In this document: positions 2,541 to 64,000 of the stretch, piece after piece
Layout: each line of letters starts with the position of its first letter
How positions within the stretch are numbered: the stretch's first letter is position 1
Translations under genes and position numbers: made by a program
The notes under the pieces: generated by a model
Told to the model about the DNA's origin: nothing
Database searches by the model: none
What the model saw: only the letters and a program-made list of their open reading frames with translations
From: a virus
Lineage: Duplodnaviria > Caudoviricetes
IMG/VR virus record: IMGVR_UViG_3300037541_000451
Span: 1 to 64,000 of that record
Direction: 5' to 3' (one strand)
DNA: 64,000 bases

Positions 2541-3073
2541 TCTTTCACCTTGTTAACGATAGTTTTAAACGTTTCGTCTTTGTTTTGAGAAGATCTACTA
2601 GAACCATAAAAGAACTGTAAGATTTGACTAATTATTGTACCTAACAAAAAACCCAATATTGTATCAGCAAATCTTATATTGTCTTGCGGAATAGTGCCAA
2701 ATGTAATGAATCCAATATAAATAGCACCGCACATAGACCAGAAGATTGCTAAATAGTAAATAAACCTTTTCGAGAAAACATCATATTGTGCTAATGCGGC
2801 AGCTTGTAAATTACGAGCATTTTGAACATCAGCTAAGTAGGCCTTTTCAAGTTCCGCATTAATTTTATTATCTTCTTGCTTTAATCTTAAGAGCTCTTCT
2901 TCGTGCTCCATTTCAAACTGTTGTAATTTTAAAAGATCTTCTTGGCTTAAAGAAGCTTTATCTACATCTACTCCAGTTTTCTCTTTTACCCAGTCCTTAC
3001 CTTTTGCAAGGACTGCGTTTCCGATTAAATTTAAACCAGCACCAATTAAGGGCTGCAGGATCGCTGGTAGCAT
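2537..3073 (-). CDS. holin-like protein (3TM, GTA-holin type)
   Basis: C-terminal hydrophobic helices ending FFYGSSRSS; directly upstream of the endolysin. Confidence 0.65.
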   Translation of the reverse strand: MLPAILQPLIGAGLNLIGNAVLAKGKDWVKEKTGVDVDKASLSQEDLLKLQQFEMEHEEELLRLKQEDNKINAELEKAYLADVQNARNLQAAALAQYDVFSKRFIYYLAIFWSMCGAIYIGFITFGTIPQDNIRFADTILGFLLGTIISQILQFFYGSSRSSQNKDETFKTIVNKVKE

Positions 3074-53571: not shown

Positions 53572-54037
53572 TGGTTATTCCGAAATGCTTTTTAATTAAT
53601 TCTCTTGCTTGATTAAGTCCGCCAAGATTAGAGGTAACTCCTTCACTAAATTGTAGTTCACAATCAGCATCGATAACTTTAATAGCATCTTCTATGATTA
53701 ATTTAGCAAACGTGTTTGCAAATCTTTTGCTGACAAAATTAAGACCACTTCTATAAACACCACTATGCATCATTGAATTTTTAAGAGCTTCTTCAGCAAG
53801 CTCTTTAATTCGATCCGATTGTTCATCAAGGACCTCCACTCGATCTAACATATAATGTCGTTGCCTGCTGATATTACCATTATTCCACTCAATGTGAACA
53901 AAATAACCATCAATATCATCTTCTATATAGCGGGTGTCTCTATATGCTTCAGTCACTATGCCTTTGGCACCTGTACTACAGCTAATTACCTGCAAGCCTA
54001 TTACCTTATCGTGCGGAACATCTGAAAGTTTGGTCAT
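53564..54037 (-). CDS. two-domain hypothetical protein with a C-terminal RIKELAE...HFG domain
   Basis: ORF track. Confidence 0.7.
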   Translation of the reverse strand: MTKLSDVPHDKVIGLQVISCSTGAKGIVTEAYRDTRYIEDDIDGYFVHIEWNNGNISRQRHYMLDRVEVLDEQSDRIKELAEEALKNSMMHSGVYRSGLNFVSKRFANTFAKLIIEDAIKVIDADCELQFSEGVTSNLGGLNQARELIKKHFGITNE

Positions 54038-54286
54038 TCTTCAACTCCAAAATGTGTCTTAATCTGTTTAGCACATGCATCAATCGCACTATTGTGTGCG
54101 CTGGCATGAGTGCCCACCATACCTATAATGTTTAGGTAACACATTAGCACATTCCCTCACAACCAGTTCCACAAGCTTTGCCTGAAAAATTTCATCGTGA
54201 ACCCATGTATGCCAATCTTTTTCGGAAACTTCTTTATCAGCCTCTTCCCAAGCCTTGCCAACAAGTTCTGCCATTCGTTCGTTCAT
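54034..54286 (-). pseudogene. RIKELAE...HFGV family protein with a 1-nt insertion
   Basis: MNERMAELVG...VRECANV, then in the +1 frame ...IKTHFGVEE ending in an ATGA overlap; 253 nt = 84 codons + 1. Confidence 0.55.
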
Positions 54287-54287
54287 T

Positions 54288-54515
54288 TCAGACTCCGAAA
54301 TGTTTTTCAATATGCTCTGCCACTCTGTCAAGATAATATCCCTTACCTTTCAAGTCACCAACATCGGCATCATGAATTTCATTGATACATTCCTTGACAA
54401 TCAACTCTGCGAACTTTGCTGATTGTCTAGTGGGCATATCACATCCACAACCGCACATTTCTAATCCAGCCTCTACGGCAAGTTGTTTAATTCGTTTTGC
54501 TAGTTTGTTATTCAT
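54288..54515 (-). CDS. RIKELAE...HFGV family protein
   Basis: KRIKQLAVEAG...KFAELIVKEC...IEKHFGV. Confidence 0.7.
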   Translation of the reverse strand: MNNKLAKRIKQLAVEAGLEMCGCGCDMPTRQSAKFAELIVKECINEIHDADVGDLKGKGYYLDRVAEHIEKHFGV

Positions 54516-54534
54516 CTTAAAAACCTTTTAAAGA

Positions 54535-54611
54535 TGGTCTGCCCAAAGGGACTCGAACCCCTAACCTACTCCTTAGAAGGGAGTTGCTCTATCCAATTGA
54601 GCTATGGGCAG
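54535..54611 (-). tRNA. tRNA-Arg(TCT)
   Basis: Full cloverleaf; anticodon stem ACTCC/GGAGT, loop CTTCTAA; encoded CCA. Confidence 0.92.
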
Positions 54612-54626
54612 ATATATTAATTTTTA

Positions 54627-54896
54627 TTAAATTTCACGAGTATCTTTAGTTCTTGCTTTAATAAATTTTAAAATATCACCTCGATGTACTTTTCCTAAAT
54701 ACTGAAACTTTTTTCTACTAGGCCAGTAATCAAGACGTCTTTCATTAAGCATTCGCGACCAATGATACTCGGTATGTTTTGTCCATTTACCATCATCGTC
54801 TTGAATAGCTTGTTCTAAGAATTTCTTTCTATCGGCATCGAACTTTTCCTTGGAGTGTTCTTTCAAGATATCCCAAATAGGATCTTTATCATTCAT
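54627..54896 (-). CDS. hypothetical protein
   Basis: RLDYWPSRKKF pattern. Confidence 0.7.
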   Translation of the reverse strand: MNDKDPIWDILKEHSKEKFDADRKKFLEQAIQDDDGKWTKHTEYHWSRMLNERRLDYWPSRKKFQYLGKVHRGDILKFIKARTKDTREI

Positions 54897-55233
54897 GTAC
54901 AGAAACCTCTCGAATATGCCAATTAATTATACTCCAGTAGGATTCTAAAGATTGATACATTCCACTATATTGCTTACAATGTTCTTGGCTTAATGTTATC
55001 AAAATTTCCTGAGCATCTTCTTTACTTGTAAGAACAGCTGTCTTGACAAGATCATTAGTACAAATTAAGTATACTGTTTTAGTTTTATTCTGAGATGAAA
55101 AATTTTCAACCTTTCTTTCTAGATTGCGAACGCGATGTTCAAGCTTGTTAAAAACAGATAAAGGAACTTTTTGTTCCATAGACTGCACATGCTCAATATA
55201 TTCTTTAGTAGGAACTAAGCGAGTCATTACCAT
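54889..55233 (-). CDS. hypothetical protein, paralog of 52326-52688
   Basis: See the paralog entry. Confidence 0.65.
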   Translation of the reverse strand: MVMTRLVPTKEYIEHVQSMEQKVPLSVFNKLEHRVRNLERKVENFSSQNKTKTVYLICTNDLVKTAVLTSKEDAQEILITLSQEHCKQYSGMYQSLESYWSIINWHIREVSVHE

Positions 55234-55502
55234 TTCACCTTATCAGCCCAATATGCTGCACTCATTTTGCCCTTAGCAATGTTCTCAGCGTGGCGAGCTT
55301 TAAAAGATTCTCTACGAGCTTTGTAAGCTTCTGATTCACCTTCTTTAGGCGGTGAGCCTTTCACACCTTGAGCACCAAATCTGATAAGCTTTACTGCTTC
55401 ACCTTCCTTGGCTAATACAGCATGGCTTTTTGTTGGATGATCTGGAGTTCTTTTAGGATCGTTATAACCCTCAAAAGTTTCTCCTCGATATGTGATACTC
55501 AT
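55227..55502 (-). CDS. conserved phage protein (DUF6321-like)
   Basis: KLIRFGAQG...RRESFKARH...SAAYWADKVKW. Confidence 0.75.
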   Translation of the reverse strand: MSITYRGETFEGYNDPKRTPDHPTKSHAVLAKEGEAVKLIRFGAQGVKGSPPKEGESEAYKARRESFKARHAENIAKGKMSAAYWADKVKW

Positions 55503-55804
55503 AAAAACTCCTCACACTCAATTACTTTAATACCTGCTTCTTTGATTGCTAACAAACAAATACTGCAAGGTTTCATCAACTTTAATTCAGTACGATTTTG
55601 TTTTTCAATTCTAATCTTATGAATAGGTTTACCTTTTGCACGAATTATCGCCAATATCTCTGCATGAAGATATATACGATAGTCTTGGTCTGTTTTAGAC
55701 GCATGCCTTGCTTGAATAGGATGCGTTTTAGTGTATGAATTCTTAGCAATAGAAATCACTCTACCACGCTTATCGTAAGTAGTAGCTCTTATATCAGACT
55801 TCAT
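55499..55804 (-). CDS. zinc-dependent cytidine/dCMP deaminase-fold protein
   Basis: HAE...PCxxC. Confidence 0.8.
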   Translation of the reverse strand: MKSDIRATTYDKRGRVISIAKNSYTKTHPIQARHASKTDQDYRIYLHAEILAIIRAKGKPIHKIRIEKQNRTELKLMKPCSICLLAIKEAGIKVIECEEFL

Positions 55805-56312
55805 TGGCTTGGTCTTTAGCGAGCTTATAAAGTTTGTTAAATCGATTTGACAGGACTCTGATATTAGTCAAAGCAACCTTTGAATTTTCTGTATCATAAA
55901 AAGCCCAACGACCTGTTTCTAATTCGAATTCAACAGGAATTGCATTTGGTGATTTGTAATAAAAGAATTTAATTCGAAAGGTTTTGGCAAGTGTGTGATC
56001 TACAGAAATAGGGATAGAATTTACAATATCTTGAAATTCCAAAACTGTTATCAGCTTAGAATTCCATACCACTTCATTCTTTGAATCTAGAATTTCGAAA
56101 CAAACACGCAGTCTATCTTTAAAAAGTTCTTGAACTGTAGATTCTTCCGGCTTCCGTAAATTTACAATAGTCAGTTCACCCGTATTCATATCTACAGCGA
56201 ACGATCGGCCAGATGTAATTACATCGTGAACCATATCACTTTGAAATAGTTTCTTTACGGGCTTTACAATCATGAAAACACGATTGTTAATAGTCACAAA
56301 CTTTCGTTCCAT
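55794..56312 (-). CDS. hypothetical protein
   Basis: ORF track. Confidence 0.65.
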   Translation of the reverse strand: MERKFVTINNRVFMIVKPVKKLFQSDMVHDVITSGRSFAVDMNTGELTIVNLRKPEESTVQELFKDRLRVCFEILDSKNEVVWNSKLITVLEFQDIVNSIPISVDHTLAKTFRIKFFYYKSPNAIPVEFELETGRWAFYDTENSKVALTNIRVLSNRFNKLYKLAKDQANEV

Positions 56313-56347
56313 TTTAAGCTTTCTAAGATAAAATTATTTGCGTTTAA

Positions 56348-56473
56348 AACCGTACATATAAGTCAGCTGCCTTGTACTGTTTTGATAAGTCTTGTTGGCC
56401 AGACGACTTATCCTCAATCACGACTTGGTCCTTCGTCGCGAGCTTACAAAGCAGCTGAATTATATGTACGGTT
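56348..56473 (-). ncRNA. candidate three-way-junction RNA
   Basis: 29-nt inverted repeat enclosing two hairpins, 7 nt downstream of tRNA-Leu. Confidence 0.5.
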
Positions 56474-56480
56474 AAATAAA

Positions 56481-56569
56481 TGGTGCCCGGAGCGGGGATC
56501 GAACCCGCACGACGTTTTATTGCCGACGGATTTTAAGTCCGTTGTGTCTACCGATTTCACCATCCGGGC
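56481..56569 (-). tRNA. tRNA-Leu(TAA)
   Basis: Class II cloverleaf with long variable arm; anticodon loop CTTAAAA; CCA. Confidence 0.93.
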
Positions 56570-56577
56570 TAAGTTAA

Positions 56578-56949
56578 TTAATCGTTAATGATATATTCTT
56601 GAAATTCTTCTGGAATTATTACATTTGAAGGTGATCCTGCAAACATCGGACCAATTTGATCCGGAGTAAAACCAGCTAAACCACAGCCAATGGGAGTTAG
56701 TTTAAATTTGAGATGACTTCTTGACTTAGCAAATTCTTTGAATTTTTCAACATGTTGCGCAATTTCGTCTAACGTTAAACTTTTATACGGCGTTGATTTC
56801 GTAGGAATAGCATAAGAAGCACCTTGAAGTCCTTCTCCAACGCCTAACTTAGCTCCATATCTTTCCAAAGCTGTTTTAGCTGATCCAGCTCCGTGAATAC
56901 CTTGACGATTACTTCCAAATACAAAAATCGTATCGGTAAGTTTTTTCAT
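56578..56949 (-). CDS. FVFGSN-family protein (possibly macro-domain-like)
   Basis: FVFGSNRQGIHGAG...SYAIPTK...TPIGCGLAG; fold assignment from memory, uncertain. Confidence 0.55.
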   Translation of the reverse strand: MKKLTDTIFVFGSNRQGIHGAGSAKTALERYGAKLGVGEGLQGASYAIPTKSTPYKSLTLDEIAQHVEKFKEFAKSRSHLKFKLTPIGCGLAGFTPDQIGPMFAGSPSNVIIPEEFQEYIIND

Positions 56950-57120
56950 TTAGGTTGTAGCTAGCTCCAACTCGAGTTTGTCAAGTGTTTCCTTAAGCTC
57001 TTCTCGCGATTTTAAGAAAAGGTCGTAATTATGCCCCTTGAAATCAGTTGCAGCGACAGCCATTGCATCAGCTAATTCTAGGATATGTTGTTTTTCTTGT
57101 TTTAGTTGACCTGAATCCAT
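56950..57120 (-). CDS. small hypothetical protein (56 aa)
   Basis: SD AAAGGA; MDSGQLKQEKQHILELADAMAV... Confidence 0.6.
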   Translation of the reverse strand: MDSGQLKQEKQHILELADAMAVAATDFKGHNYDLFLKSREELKETLDKLELELATT

Positions 57121-57187
57121 ATTATCTTCCTTTATAGCTGAGATATATCAGCCACGCGTGCTACCCATTCAGCTTATAAAGGTAAAT

Positions 57188-57379
57188 TCAGTAGTCTACT
57201 TGAAAATCATCCATATCATCTTTTAGACAACTGTTACAAATACTATACTTATTTGTAATAGGGAGTTTAGCACCACAGACACAAATCATATTTAATTGTC
57301 TGCCGGTCTCTGAATCGTAGTCTGGGCAACAGCCCAACTCGTGTCCGCAACAAGGAAAATCTTCACATCTAGCGGCCAT
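57188..57379 (-). CDS. small Cys-rich (Zn-binding) protein
   Basis: CEDFPCCGH, CC, CxC, CxxC. Confidence 0.65.
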   Translation of the reverse strand: MAARCEDFPCCGHELGCCPDYDSETGRQLNMICVCGAKLPITNKYSICNSCLKDDMDDFQVDY

Positions 57380-57416
57380 AAGTGTCCTTAAATAAATTGT
57401 TTAAAAATCTATCATA

Positions 57417-57492
57417 TGGCTCCACGACCTGGATTCGAACCAGGGACCAACAAATTAACAGTCTGCTGCTCTACCGACTGAGCTATCGTGGA
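57417..57492 (-). tRNA. tRNA-Asn(GTT)
   Basis: Cloverleaf; anticodon loop CTGTTAA; CCA. Confidence 0.92.
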
Positions 57493-57668
57493 ACAGTTTC
57501 TAATAGTGCGCCTACAATTGTTCTTTCAATCTCAGCAAAAATTTTATGTTTGTTTACATTATCCTTAAGATTGTTTTCAAGTCTGAGACAAATGCATTCT
57601 GAATACATTATAGCTTTTCGATATAATATATAGTCTAATGTCTTAAGTTGTGAATGTAGATCTTGCAT
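57483..57668 (-). CDS. hypothetical protein
   Basis: ORF track; the 3' end overlaps tRNA-Asn. Confidence 0.4.
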   Translation of the reverse strand: MQDLHSQLKTLDYILYRKAIMYSECICLRLENNLKDNVNKHKIFAEIERTIVGALLETVPR

Positions 57669-57674
57669 AGTTAA

Positions 57675-57750
57675 TGGTGCCGCTTATCTGACTCGAACAG
57701 ATGACCTACCGATTACAAATCGGTTGCTCTACCAACTGAGCTAAAGCGGC
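57675..57750 (-). tRNA. tRNA-Thr(TGT)
   Basis: Cloverleaf; anticodon loop TTTGTAA; CCA. Confidence 0.93.
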
Positions 57751-57957
57751 TTAATTTGTTCTCTCAATCTTCCAAAAAGTTGTATTTATAGATTCGTTAA
57801 CTTCTAATGCAAGAACATAATTTTTCCAAAACCACCGATTATCCATCGTAGAACCTCTAACGGTATCTTTACAAGTCAACCAGTCCGGTGCATTAATTTC
57901 ATTAAATTCCAAGATTTTGTTAGAGAAGTATAGATGGGTTGCTTTAAATTCTTTCAT
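57751..57957 (-). CDS. hypothetical protein
   Basis: ORF track. Confidence 0.65.
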   Translation of the reverse strand: MKEFKATHLYFSNKILEFNEINAPDWLTCKDTVRGSTMDNRWFWKNYVLALEVNESINTTFWKIERTN

Positions 57958-57961
57958 ACTT

Positions 57962-58315
57962 TTAAGTCAACGAAATCCGAAGCTTCCGTTGAATTGCAGA
58001 AAGCCTTTTATAAGCATTTTGTAGCTTGTCACGCTTTGAAAAGAATCGATTTTTCTTAGTATTCGAATAGAACTTAATTGCTTCAGATCTTTCTGAATTA
58101 TATTCTTCAAGATCAAGTGTCATTAAATTTAATTGTCCACGAAGCACAGTACGTAGATATTGTGCTTCTTGCTGAGTTAAACTTATTAGAACTTCTGATG
58201 ATAGTTTTGACTCATTCGTTTCAGGTGAATTACGAAAGTTGTTAGCATCAGTAAAAGTCATTTTTTCAATCCATTTATTAAACCAATCGTTTAAAGTATT
58301 CATATTAACTCCCAT
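57962..58315 (-). CDS. hypothetical protein
   Basis: ORF track. Confidence 0.6.
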   Translation of the reverse strand: MGVNMNTLNDWFNKWIEKMTFTDANNFRNSPETNESKLSSEVLISLTQQEAQYLRTVLRGQLNLMTLDLEEYNSERSEAIKFYSNTKKNRFFSKRDKLQNAYKRLSAIQRKLRISLT

Positions 58316-58505
58316 TATAAACTCTATCAGAAATATCTACACCATGAAAATCGGTATAAAACTCTTCATATCTACCTTCGCTACTGCATGAACGCCTATG
58401 TGGACAATCTACATGAGAGCATTCCCATTGAGCAGTAGTTTCAATGTTACTTTTATGGTGAGTCTTTTTCTGACATATAACACAAATAGATTTTTCAGGC
58501 TTCAT
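58305..58505 (-). CDS. small Cys/His-rich protein
   Basis: CxxC...H, CxxxxC. Confidence 0.55.
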   Translation of the reverse strand: MKPEKSICVICQKKTHHKSNIETTAQWECSHVDCPHRRSCSSEGRYEEFYTDFHGVDISDRVYNGS

Positions 58506-58525
58506 TAAAGACTCCTGTAAAAGAA

Positions 58526-58798
58526 TTATTTGTTAAAGCCATTTCTAAGAATTTTTCGAATGCTTTTTTGAATTTTTTCTTTTCTTTTTATTTCTTCTGT
58601 TAAATCACGCTCATATTGTCTATAGTAATTTAGTAACTTAAAAGAATTTTGAACAGAGCTGTCATCTTTGTTTATATAGTCACATTTATGATAATAGTAT
58701 TTTGCCTTATCTCTGGCGCGCTCCTTTTCAATATGGAGCTCATTTAATTGATCTTTTAAGATAGACTCGAAAAATTGCAAAGAGGAATTGTCTAGCAT
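58526..58798 (-). CDS. hypothetical coiled-coil protein
   Basis: SD AGGAG. Confidence 0.65.
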   Translation of the reverse strand: MLDNSSLQFFESILKDQLNELHIEKERARDKAKYYYHKCDYINKDDSSVQNSFKLLNYYRQYERDLTEEIKRKEKIQKSIRKILRNGFNK

Positions 58799-58810
58799 TT
58801 TCGCTCCTAA

Positions 58811-58848
58811 TGGTAGGCCGGGTCGGATTCGAACCGACGGCTAAACGA
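58811..58848 (-). pseudogene. 3' half of a broken tRNA (positions about 39-76)
   Basis: TCGTT-TAGCC-GTCGG TTCGAAT CCGAC-CCGGCCT-A-CCA; its acceptor strand pairs with the 5' half at 59432-59458. Confidence 0.85.
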
Positions 58849-58925
58849 TGGTGAGACCGATGGGACTCGAACCCATAACCCGCATCTTATGAGGATGACG
58901 CTCTAACCGATTGAGCTACAGTCTC
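58849..58925 (-). tRNA. tRNA with CAT anticodon (probably elongator Met)
   Basis: Cloverleaf, loop CTCATAA, CCA; lacks the C4-G69 and C29-G41 pairs linked to TilS recognition in E. coli. Confidence 0.85.
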
Positions 58926-58931
58926 TGTCAC

Positions 58932-59408
58932 TTAACTTGAAAAATCTCTATGGATATTTCTTACAAATTCATTTCTAACCGCGACAGCTTCGTTTACAGT
59001 TTTAAATTTAGGAGTTCTATATTGCTTACCATTCAATCCGCATTCAACATAATACAAACCGGACTTCGTTTTATAAATATTTTTGATACCAGATGATGAA
59101 TTTGAAGATACCTTTCTATTTAAGTTGTTCTCAATATTTGAACACTTTCTTAAATTAGAGATCTTGTTGTTGACTCGATTTCTGTCGATATGATCAATAA
59201 GATCAAAATCGTTCAAAAATCCATATACATAAATCCAGATTAATCGATGAGCTTGATAAAATTTATTATCAATTCTGATATGGCGGTATCCTCTTGAATT
59301 CACAGTACCTGCAATAGTACCGATTTTAGCAATACCTCTGTTTTCTTTCCATATCAAATTTTCACCATCGTAATCAAATAATTGTTTTAAATACTTTTGT
59401 GTTATCAT
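58932..59408 (-). CDS. free-standing HNH homing endonuclease
   Basis: AHRLIW...IDHIDRNRVNNKISNLR; AP2-like C-terminus. Confidence 0.88.
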   Translation of the reverse strand: MITQKYLKQLFDYDGENLIWKENRGIAKIGTIAGTVNSRGYRHIRIDNKFYQAHRLIWIYVYGFLNDFDLIDHIDRNRVNNKISNLRKCSNIENNLNRKVSSNSSSGIKNIYKTKSGLYYVECGLNGKQYRTPKFKTVNEAVAVRNEFVRNIHRDFSS

Positions 59409-59431
59409 TTTTACTTTAAAGTAAATAGATA

Positions 59432-59458
59432 TTACTCTAACCGCTGAGTTACCGGCCC
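59432..59458 (-). pseudogene. 5' half of the broken tRNA (positions 1-27)
   Basis: GGGCCGG-TA-ACTC AGCGGTTA GAGT-AA. Confidence 0.85.
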
Positions 59459-59464
59459 TGTGTT

Positions 59465-59629
59465 TTAGAAACCTATATTCTCAATATAGGCAAGTTCTAT
59501 TCTGATTTTTGAATTTGCTGGAATATAATGTTGAACAATTAATACGCTAACCAGTTGTTCTGCCTGAGACTCGCTCTTTAATATGGCAAACAACCGATTG
59601 TTTATAAATAATCTAAAACAGTTTCCCAT
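59465..59629 (-). CDS. small hypothetical protein (54 aa)
   Basis: MGNCFRLFINNRLFAIL... Confidence 0.45.
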   Translation of the reverse strand: MGNCFRLFINNRLFAILKSESQAEQLVSVLIVQHYIPANSKIRIELAYIENIGF

Positions 59630-59643
59630 ATAATTACTGACCT

Positions 59644-59808
59644 CTATAAACTGACACTTATTTTAAGAACAGTAGCAATTGCTATAATCAAAACCATAAG
59701 AGAAAGTGTTCCTACGAGATATAAAAAAGAATCTTCAAGTGAGCCTGTAATATGATAAAAACAAAAGAAGGTGGCAACTAAAATCAATGTTACTACAATA
59801 AATTCCAT
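59644..59808 (-). CDS. small two-TM membrane protein (54 aa)
   Basis: SD AAAGGGA; MEFIVVTLILVATFFCF... Confidence 0.6.
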   Translation of the reverse strand: MEFIVVTLILVATFFCFYHITGSLEDSFLYLVGTLSLMVLIIAIATVLKISVSL

Positions 59809-59821
59809 TTCAATCCCTTTA

Positions 59822-59918
<97 letters not shown>

Positions 59919-60059
59919 ATAAAACTCTTAAAAAGCAGGGAGACAGGCTGCTGATTAAAAGTTTTTAAAGACAGTTTCCAGACGTGTCTAGGTCATGAGA
60001 CTGACTGCAGACTGAAACAGAGGGGCATCTGCAACTTACTGCAGCAATGTCTCTATTTC

Positions 60060-60638
60060 TCACGCAGGCGTAATTTCCGTTGAAGCGGTCTTGGCAGCCT
60101 TTTCAGCAGCCATCTTCGCACGGTAAGCAGCAAGACCTTCAGCGGCCTTAGGATTAAGTTCACGCTTGACTTCTCCAGCGCTATAAGCTGACATGACTTC
60201 ATCCTTGTTCGCGATGATCCAGTCAGAAAGATCAGTGTTATTCTCGCTAGCAGCCATCAGAGTGTTACGAGCAGCCGTCTTCTTCTCATCATCATTCATA
60301 CGCTTGACGCTAGGCCAGCGGAATGAATCAAGGATTGCAGCGGCGTTCTCTTGCAGGAACACCAGATCCTTGTCGTTGATGGTCTTAAGATGATCAAGAG
60401 CCTTATTAAGCTTCTTGTACTCAACCTTCGTAACACGGCGGATTTGACCGACCTCGAAAGCCATTTCAACTGTCTCTTGGTTTTCGATCAGCCAATTTAC
60501 AAGATCTTTATTGTTCTTAGTAAGACGCAGCAGCGCCTCTTCAATCTTAGGACGGCGAAGATAATCCAGAGCCTCCTTCTTGGTTTCGAACATCTTACCA
60601 TCGGGAGTCGTGAATACTTGCTTCAATTCCATTATCAT
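60060..60638 (-). CDS. conserved early protein, probably abundant
   Basis: Higher GC and biased codons like the capsid gene; directly behind promoter copy 3. Confidence 0.8.
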   Translation of the reverse strand: MIMELKQVFTTPDGKMFETKKEALDYLRRPKIEEALLRLTKNNKDLVNWLIENQETVEMAFEVGQIRRVTKVEYKKLNKALDHLKTINDKDLVFLQENAAAILDSFRWPSVKRMNDDEKKTAARNTLMAASENNTDLSDWIIANKDEVMSAYSAGEVKRELNPKAAEGLAAYRAKMAAEKAAKTASTEITPA

Positions 60639-60927: not shown

Positions 60928-61419
60928 CTAGGTTTCGATTAGTTCTTTAGTGATAGAATCTCGGTACTCGATCTTAGGCGTATACGGAAATGTTACAGGA
61001 ACCCTACTTTCATAACTTGTAAAAGCTGATCTAGTTTTCTTCTTGGTCTCTGGGTCTATAAACCATTCCATCCATACAATACCTTGAATGTCGTAGGCAC
61101 CAGTGTTATCTTTAAACACATGACCGCAACGTTTATTTTGATAAAGAGGACCACTATCTCGTCCACCGAATTCACTTACATTGCTCCACTCCCAATCTTC
61201 ACCTGTTAAAGGCACAATCGGTTCATATTTTGCAAGTGTTGAGAATAAGTTTATTGTATACAGTGCTGTAGTTCCTGAATGTCCTTCATCAGAAAATACT
61301 TTCAAAAGCTTTAAAATATGCTTACAAATAGCTTCCTGCATTTCGTCTTTGAACTTGTTGTTCTCATCACACCAACCTGCAGCACGAAACTCTGTCCAAG
61401 CATGAAATTCTAAACTCAT
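60928..61419 (-). CDS. conserved phage protein
   Basis: FSDEGHSG...PLTGEDWEW...QNKRC. Confidence 0.75.
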   Translation of the reverse strand: MSLEFHAWTEFRAAGWCDENNKFKDEMQEAICKHILKLLKVFSDEGHSGTTALYTINLFSTLAKYEPIVPLTGEDWEWSNVSEFGGRDSGPLYQNKRCGHVFKDNTGAYDIQGIVWMEWFIDPETKKKTRSAFTSYESRVPVTFPYTPKIEYRDSITKELIET

Positions 61420-63960: not shown

Positions 63961-64000
63961 TTAAATATCAATCACTGAACGAAAACCTACTGCTCTTCCA

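Follow-up and report, generated by a model that had tools for sequence, protein, structure and literature searches.

The DNA analysed here, referred to as the window, is the 64,000 nt stretch from position 1 to position 64,000 of the IMG/VR record IMGVR_UViG_3300037541_000451, which belongs to a virus of the Caudoviricetes. On its minus strand, the two halves of a tRNA gene are separated by an HNH endonuclease gene and a second, complete tRNA gene with the anticodon CAT. The question raised by this locus is how a phage comes to carry a broken tRNA gene that encloses both a nuclease gene and a whole tRNA gene, and what became of the function of the gene that was broken. Each part of the layout had been claimed in an earlier sequence-only reading, and each was found in its place on the minus strand using ARAGORN, Rfam and the list of ORFs (Table 1).

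Table 1. Features of the split tRNA locus in the window
Feature	Position	Strand	Details
5′ remnant of the resident tRNA-Ile2(CAU) gene	59433–59458	-	tRNA positions 1–26: acceptor 5′ strand, D arm and position 26
Cassette leader, 24 nt	59409–59432	-	TATC box at 59431–59428; inner hairpin at 59425–59410
HNH homing endonuclease gene, 158 aa, I-HmuI-like (most likely assignment)	58932–59408	-	Pfam HNH_3; phrog_99
Passenger tRNA(CAU), probably tRNA-Ile2, CCA end encoded	58849–58925	-	ARAGORN; Rfam tRNA, 66 bits
3′ remnant of the resident tRNA-Ile2(CAU) gene	58811–58848	-	tRNA positions 39–76

The leader, the HNH gene and the complete tRNA gene, here called the passenger, make up a 584 bp cassette (58849–59432) that replaces positions 27–38 of the resident tRNA gene, base 59432 being assignable either to tRNA position 27 or to the cassette. 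Only 6 nt lie between the stop codon of the HNH gene and the passenger, and there is no gap at all between the passenger CCA (58849) and the 3′ remnant (58848). The 3′ remnant retains the 3′ strand of the anticodon stem, the variable loop, the T arm, the 3′ strand of the acceptor stem, A73 and CCA. Its acceptor strand (58815–58821) pairs with that of the 5′ remnant at 7 of 7 positions when a G-U pair at 1–72 is counted, in agreement with the 7 bp stem proposed previously.

The layout is not an assembly artefact, as the same HNH protein is found in the same arrangement in contigs from several other samples (L005–L008) and both junctions are bridged by independent lake-metagenome contigs. The phage is known from lake metagenomes only, and not from an isolate; its sequence occurs in 12 sequencing runs, all of which are lake-water DNA metagenomes, with no RNA run among them. 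When short contigs from four of the lake runs were aligned to the locus, no joint that skips the cassette was found, though contigs of this length are too short to judge cassette-free alleles. Near and distant searches with the DNA of the locus against 50,697 curated phage records returned short tRNA matches only, and a scan for sigma-70 promoters and terminators gave counts no higher than those in shuffled sequence.

An intact allele of the split gene was sought in IMG/VR with a gapped pattern built from both remnants, and a single contig, L001, was returned. In L001 (118–193, minus strand) the halves are joined as a normal 76 nt tRNA gene with the anticodon CAT, the same anticodon that had been deduced for the broken tRNA. 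The window remnants are identical to this allele at 64 of 64 bases (5′ remnant, 26/26 at 168–193; 3′ remnant, 38/38 at 118–155), and the segment absent from the window is thus positions 27–38, which take in the entire anticodon loop together with the 5′ strand of its stem. This amounts to 12 nt, or 11 if the ambiguous A is counted, and matches the prior estimate of about 11 missing nucleotides that include the anticodon.

The L001 locus is syntenic with that in the window. It encodes a homolog of the window's 192 aa protein (68% identity), with a small upstream ORF that has the same C-terminal motif and a small zinc-ribbon-like ORF downstream. An HNH homolog is absent from L001. The HNH gene is therefore present or absent at one locus between relatives, and the target is uninterrupted where it is absent, which shows that the cassette was inserted into a tRNA gene. 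A global alignment of the window and L001 across the insertion site is informative only inside the tRNA. The sequences surrounding the tRNA are mosaic between the two: L001 has an extra 45 aa ORF ahead of its intact tRNA gene, and a 90 aa ORF of no known family that directly follows the 3′ remnant in the window (58526–58798, minus strand) is absent from L001.

To find the arrangement elsewhere, HNH homologs were collected, of which there were 78 in a large protein collection; genomic contexts were taken for the closest, and metagenome contigs were scanned with a profile. The full split layout was found at six loci, the window and five others (L003, L004, L027, L108 and L111) in metagenomic phages, where the HNH proteins are 45–78% identical to that of the window in global alignment. 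All share the order of a 5′ remnant extending to approximately position 26, the leader, the HNH gene, a tRNA(CAT) gene and a 3′ remnant, and the passenger CCA abuts the 3′ remnant in 6/6. L004 has approximately 12 extra nucleotides ahead of the leader box and a longer 3′ remnant, and its junctions are not confidently placed on tRNA positions. These five additional split loci, each with diverged halves that pair with their own partner, bear out the view of the insertion as a cassette.

In the contexts examined, every HNH homolog with at least 45% identity adjoins a tRNA(CAT) gene, and homologs with less than 42% identity have no tRNA within 150 nt; in 20 of the loci of these more distant homologs, Rfam detected one tRNA and no intron. 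Partial layouts were also seen. L009 and L012 have 5′ stubs of 23 and 26 nt, respectively, and L110 has one of 9 nt, all without a 3′ remnant, while L109 has neither remnant. A variant layout is found in L010 (1882–2544), and also in L011, L029 and L030, in which an intact tRNA(CAT) gene directly follows a 26 nt tRNA 5′ half and is itself followed by the HNH gene and then tRNA-Arg(TCT). Here the half and the tRNA(CAT) gene lie upstream of the HNH gene, the product of which is 46% identical to that of the window. For the L003 and L004 targets, exact-pattern scans of IMG/VR returned no uninterrupted allele. A 26 nt pattern from the anticodon arm of the passenger also returned no match in IMG/VR to a passenger without the HNH gene, a weak result as the scans also missed the window's own phage.

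The HNH protein of the window matches Pfam HNH_3 (E = 8.8e-10) and phrog_99 (E = 1.8e-52). A SegB-type GIY-YIG endonuclease was rejected, as the Pfam and PHROGs matches are all to HNH families. The protein has the HNH catalytic motif, with Asp72, His73, Asn85 and Asn94/97 invariant across 15 homologs. A profile of the clade matches the structure of I-HmuI (1u3e; E = 6e-9), and I-HmuI is also the top Foldseek match (probability 1.00) to an AlphaFold model of the protein (mean pLDDT 84). I-HmuI is an intron-encoded endonuclease from a Bacillus phage and nicks one DNA strand. The nuclease in the window is most likely a free-standing, I-HmuI-like homing endonuclease, and its presumed activity is the nicking or cutting of DNA.

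As CAT is the anticodon of three kinds of tRNA gene considered here, namely Met, fMet and Ile2, other positions were used to identify the resident and passenger genes. Among bacterial tRNA genes, G3 and C70 occurred in 0/288 Met and 0/457 fMet genes and are thus markers of Ile(CAT), in which C4-G69 and C5-G68 are also frequent, while A11-T24 marks initiators (Silva et al. 2006; PMC1635315). The intact target in L001 has the CAT anticodon, G3-C70, C4-G69, C5-G68, C11-G24, U12-A23 and A73. Its best match in Escherichia coli is the CAT gene annotated as tRNA-Ile in RefSeq, and the anticodon arms are almost identical. By these features the resident split gene is tRNA-Ile2, as had been suspected from the remnants, and its product would be expected to carry lysidine.

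The passenger in the window has CAT, G3-C70, C5-G68 and A73, without initiator features. Of the 11 passengers, 10 share G3-C70, the exception being that of L109, the acceptor stem of which we take to be that of E. coli ileX. As both target and passenger have G3-C70, which is absent from bacterial Met and fMet genes, both are probably tRNA-Ile2; for the passenger we consider this likely, and lysidine would again be presumed. The alternative is that the passenger is an elongator tRNA-Met, in which case the decoding of AUA was destroyed and not replaced, and the passenger is hitch-hiking cargo or useful in some other way. ARAGORN calls the window passenger tRNA-Met, on the basis of the anticodon, and the gene has A4-U69 where E. 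coli TilS needs C4-G69, A-U rather than C29-G41 at 29–41, and a T27-C43 mismatch. Among E. coli tRNA genes it best matches a tRNA-Val, which is uninformative, and it does not specifically resemble tRNA-Ile2. Nonetheless, we regard this alternative as unlikely. In addition to G3-C70, found in 0/288 Met and 0/457 fMet genes, all passengers have CAT, the same anticodon as the gene replaced, and most keep the G27-U43 wobble pair of the intact targets and of the E. coli tRNA-Ile CAT gene. Cassette-free relatives carry a single CAT tRNA gene, which is of the Ile2 type. The passenger is also the sole CAT gene among the five tRNA genes of the window, where AUA accounts for 25% of Ile codons (17.8 per 1000 codons in the ORFs); the other four tRNAs read AGA, UUA, ACA and AAY, which are A-ending or AT-rich codons. 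An attempt to label both tRNAs via their neighbours in phage records failed, as CAT genes are called Met or Ile inconsistently there.

Target and passenger differ systematically in the anticodon stem. Intact alleles of the target type (L001, L019 and the E. coli tRNA-Ile CAT gene) have A31-U39 and G30-C40 beside the loop and a G27-U43 wobble pair, and the retained 3′ strands in the window, L003 and L111 begin in the same way. In contrast, 11 of 11 passengers have another pair at 31–39, mostly C-G. The passenger of L009 is of the target lineage, with an identical 5′ half, and 8 of its 12 differences from L001 are found in the 10 nt of the anticodon stem, a clustering with a binomial chance of approximately 2e-5 (a rough estimate). 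The segment deleted by the insertion is the same region of the anticodon arm in which target and passenger differ. If the nuclease reads the anticodon arm, an immune allele would be expected to differ in this way.

Overall, the locus is probably the product of a homing-endonuclease cassette, made up of the leader, the gene for the I-HmuI-like HNH protein and a whole tRNA(CAU) gene, that disrupts tRNA-Ile2 and brings an immune replacement with it. In a co-infected cell, a relative that lacks the cassette would have its intact tRNA gene nicked or cut by the HNH protein, at a site within or beside the anticodon arm. The break would be repaired from the cassette-bearing genome, with the tRNA remnants and flanks serving as homology arms, and the repair would copy the cassette in and split the recipient gene at the same place. 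Recutting would not be expected, as the split allele has lost the site and the anticodon stem of the passenger is of the C31-G39 type rather than A31-U39. The passenger would supply the AUA-decoding tRNA lost by the insertion, so that the cost to the phage would be small. Several findings are counted against homing. L001, the nearest cassette-free relative, is only approximately 68% identical in the neighbouring protein, and the contrast thus does not amount to a recent presence/absence polymorphism within one lineage; the layout is not uniform, with a 5′ stub only in L009, L012 and L110 and no remnant in L109; and the homology arms offered by the tRNA are short (26 and 38 nt), with flanks that are only approximately 52% identical between the window and L003.

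The remnants themselves bear on whether the cassette has moved. Across the six split loci, the acceptor strands of cognate halves pair at 7, 7, 7, 6, 7 and 6 of 7 positions. When halves from different loci are combined, 14 of 15 combinations pair at 4–6 of 7, and the exception, L004 with L108, pairs at 7 and involves the same acceptor sequence. The pairing of cognate halves is not chance. The remnants vary between loci, yet the acceptor, D and T stems stay paired via compensatory changes, which in the comparison of the window with L003 are found at 5–68, 7–66, 10–25 and 51–63. In that comparison, the HNH genes share 77.8% nucleotide identity with a dS of 1.43, the remnants are 70–74% identical and the outer flanks approximately 52%. 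The passengers are identical (77/77), and both the HNH gene (dN/dS 0.09) and the passenger are under purifying selection. Had the remnants been dead since one shared insertion, they would be expected to be near random, with broken stems, at such synonymous divergence. As the remnants are instead 70–74% identical with paired stems, the simplest reading of these sequences is that the cassette entered different functional alleles, and did so more than once.

The competing explanation is a one-off repair scar, in which an ordinary free-standing HNH gene, normally found upstream of tRNA(CAT), was placed together with that tRNA gene inside a neighbouring tRNA gene by a single illegitimate repair and has since been inherited vertically, without site-specific homing into tRNA-Ile2 genes. 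The ends of the cassette are nearly the same in all loci, each starting with the leader box and finishing with the passenger CCA, which fits a single origin, and the HNH gene and tRNA(CAT) occur without a 3′ remnant in L009, L012, L110 and L109. Under this explanation the remnants are neutral and should have decayed, but they remain tRNA-like, with compensatory changes, though the synonymous sites of the HNH gene are near saturation, and those in the window match the functional allele of a distant relative at every one of their 64 bases. We therefore consider a scar improbable. One further point counts against the homing cassette: over 11 cassettes, co-divergence of the HNH gene and its passenger was not significant (Spearman 0.19, Mantel p approximately 0.10), and it is clear only in the two closest pairs.

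Decay is visible in some remnants, as there is an acceptor mismatch in L027 and L111, only stubs persist in L009 and L110, and the 3′ remnant is missing from L009, L012 and L110, which argues against selection acting on the remnants themselves. That the interrupted tRNA is still functional, because the insert is removed as an intron or because the halves cooperate, for example as a tRNA-like bracket for RNase P, is highly improbable given this decay and the absence of 12 nt that include the anticodon, without which the exons cannot rejoin into a complete tRNA, even though the acceptor, D and T stems are intact in most loci and group I introns that encode endonucleases are known from bacterial tRNA anticodon loops (PMC3984707). 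A group I intron was rejected using Rfam, where no intron or ribozyme family was found in the window region (no family at E up to 1 in 54000–60500) or in 11 related HNH-homolog loci (none at the gathering score).

The leader has a conserved pattern in nine cassettes, consisting of a TATC box, a hairpin of 4–8 bp and then AAA-ATG-ATA. The stem sequences of the hairpins differ among these nine while pairing is kept, the Shine-Dalgarno sequence is usually in the loop or the 3′ arm, and the TATC box pairs with the GATA of the start region in most folds. The 16 nt palindrome pointed out in the sequence-only reading is present in the window, 1 nt short of the ATG, and is the inner hairpin of this leader. 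Structured leaders limit the translation of endonuclease genes in phage T4, and by analogy the cassette leader may limit translation of the nuclease. The end of the HNH ORF overlaps the passenger tRNA gene in six cassettes. For T4 segB and the adjacent tRNA-Arg, processing of the tRNA is thought to cut the mRNA (PMC2330249), and tRNA processing may limit nuclease expression here in the same way.

Free-standing endonucleases are known in phage tRNA clusters, where SegB of T4/T6 and F-TflI/II/IV of T5 cut the tRNA genes of relatives and cause neighbouring tRNA genes to be co-inherited (PMC2330249, PMC13096335). As with SegB and the T5 nucleases, the HNH gene lies among phage tRNA genes and its presumed target is a tRNA gene in relatives that lack it, and, as with segB and tRNA-Arg, the end of the ORF touches or overlaps the next tRNA gene. 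SegB is a GIY-YIG enzyme that recognises the T-arm motif with relaxed specificity, and its gene lies between genes. In contrast, the cassette described here encodes an HNH enzyme, is found inside a tRNA gene with both halves left, and always includes a whole tRNA gene with the same anticodon.

Endonuclease-encoding mobile group I introns are found in tRNA anticodon loops, for example in a cyanobacterial tRNA-fMet gene (PMC3984707). The cassette resembles these introns, and the I-HmuI system of Bacillus phage SPO1 (PDB 1u3e), in its position in the anticodon arm of a CAT tRNA, its precise ends, the removal of the presumed target site by the insertion and the relationship of its nuclease to I-HmuI. 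Unlike the introns, it has no ribozyme and its exons are not rejoinable, and function would be restored by a second copy of the gene and not by splicing. Genes split by free-standing endonuclease genes have also been described, as have fractured genes with split inteins (PMC2677866). Like the cassette, these combine an endonuclease inside an essential or useful gene with a device that keeps the host function, but in them both gene halves still work and their protein products are put back together, whereas the halves in the window are dead and a replacement gene is supplied.

A further parallel, in logic, is artificial. In synthetic home-and-rescue or cleave-and-rescue drives, a needed gene is attacked by a nuclease, and a version of that gene recoded to escape recognition is included in the element. 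The window cassette appears to follow the same logic, differing in that it is natural, protein-guided and found in phages, that the rescued gene is a tRNA gene, and that the recoding is a base-pair change in the anticodon stem. In full-text searches of the literature, we found no description of an endonuclease gene together with a spare tRNA gene of the same anticodon inside a tRNA gene. Two modes of persistence are usually considered for homing endonucleases, one within introns and inteins that repair the host product and the other between genes. The cassette would represent a third way, in which the element lands in a gene, lets that gene die and brings a replacement that differs where the nuclease is likely to act.

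The locus may be the tRNA-Ile2 member of a broad and so far undescribed class of phage elements that act as natural home-and-rescue drives with an immune spare and a rewritten anticodon stem, a suggestion we make tentatively and rate at somewhat under an even chance. If so, repeated rounds would lead to rapid turnover of phage tRNA anticodon-stem sequences, and rewriting of the stem could also allow the spare tRNA to escape the host anticodon-arm nucleases of anti-phage defence. Confirmation would provide a natural model for home-and-rescue gene drives and reveal what drives diversity in the anticodon stems of phage tRNAs, at least in part. It would also explain the orphan tRNA halves and duplicated tRNAs of the same anticodon in phage clusters that annotation pipelines miss or mislabel (here as tRNA-Met). 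The nucleases also form a compact family of enzymes with a probable recognition site in the anticodon arm of a tRNA gene.

Some further features were observed around the cassettes. A non-coding block of approximately 155 nt lies directly upstream of tRNA-Thr in L003 (3405–3560) and L009 (2526–2684), and is 89% identical between the two phages, in contrast to the approximately 50% flank identity seen between related phages (window versus L003). The block matches no Rfam family, and its conserved 10 nt core motif is absent from the window; it is a candidate for a small RNA processed together with tRNA-Thr. In L012, approximately 480 nt without an ORF or an Rfam match (2545–3022) separate the passenger tRNA(CAT) gene from tRNA-Arg. 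In the window, an unbroken run of approximately 43 T (59823–59865, minus strand), very long for a phage genome, is found just upstream of a 54 aa membrane-like ORF (59644–59808). Finally, a homolog of Tad3, an inhibitor of type I Thoeris defence (Pfam PF25185, E = 3.4e-31), is encoded 1.5 kb upstream of the cassette (60928–61419, minus strand).
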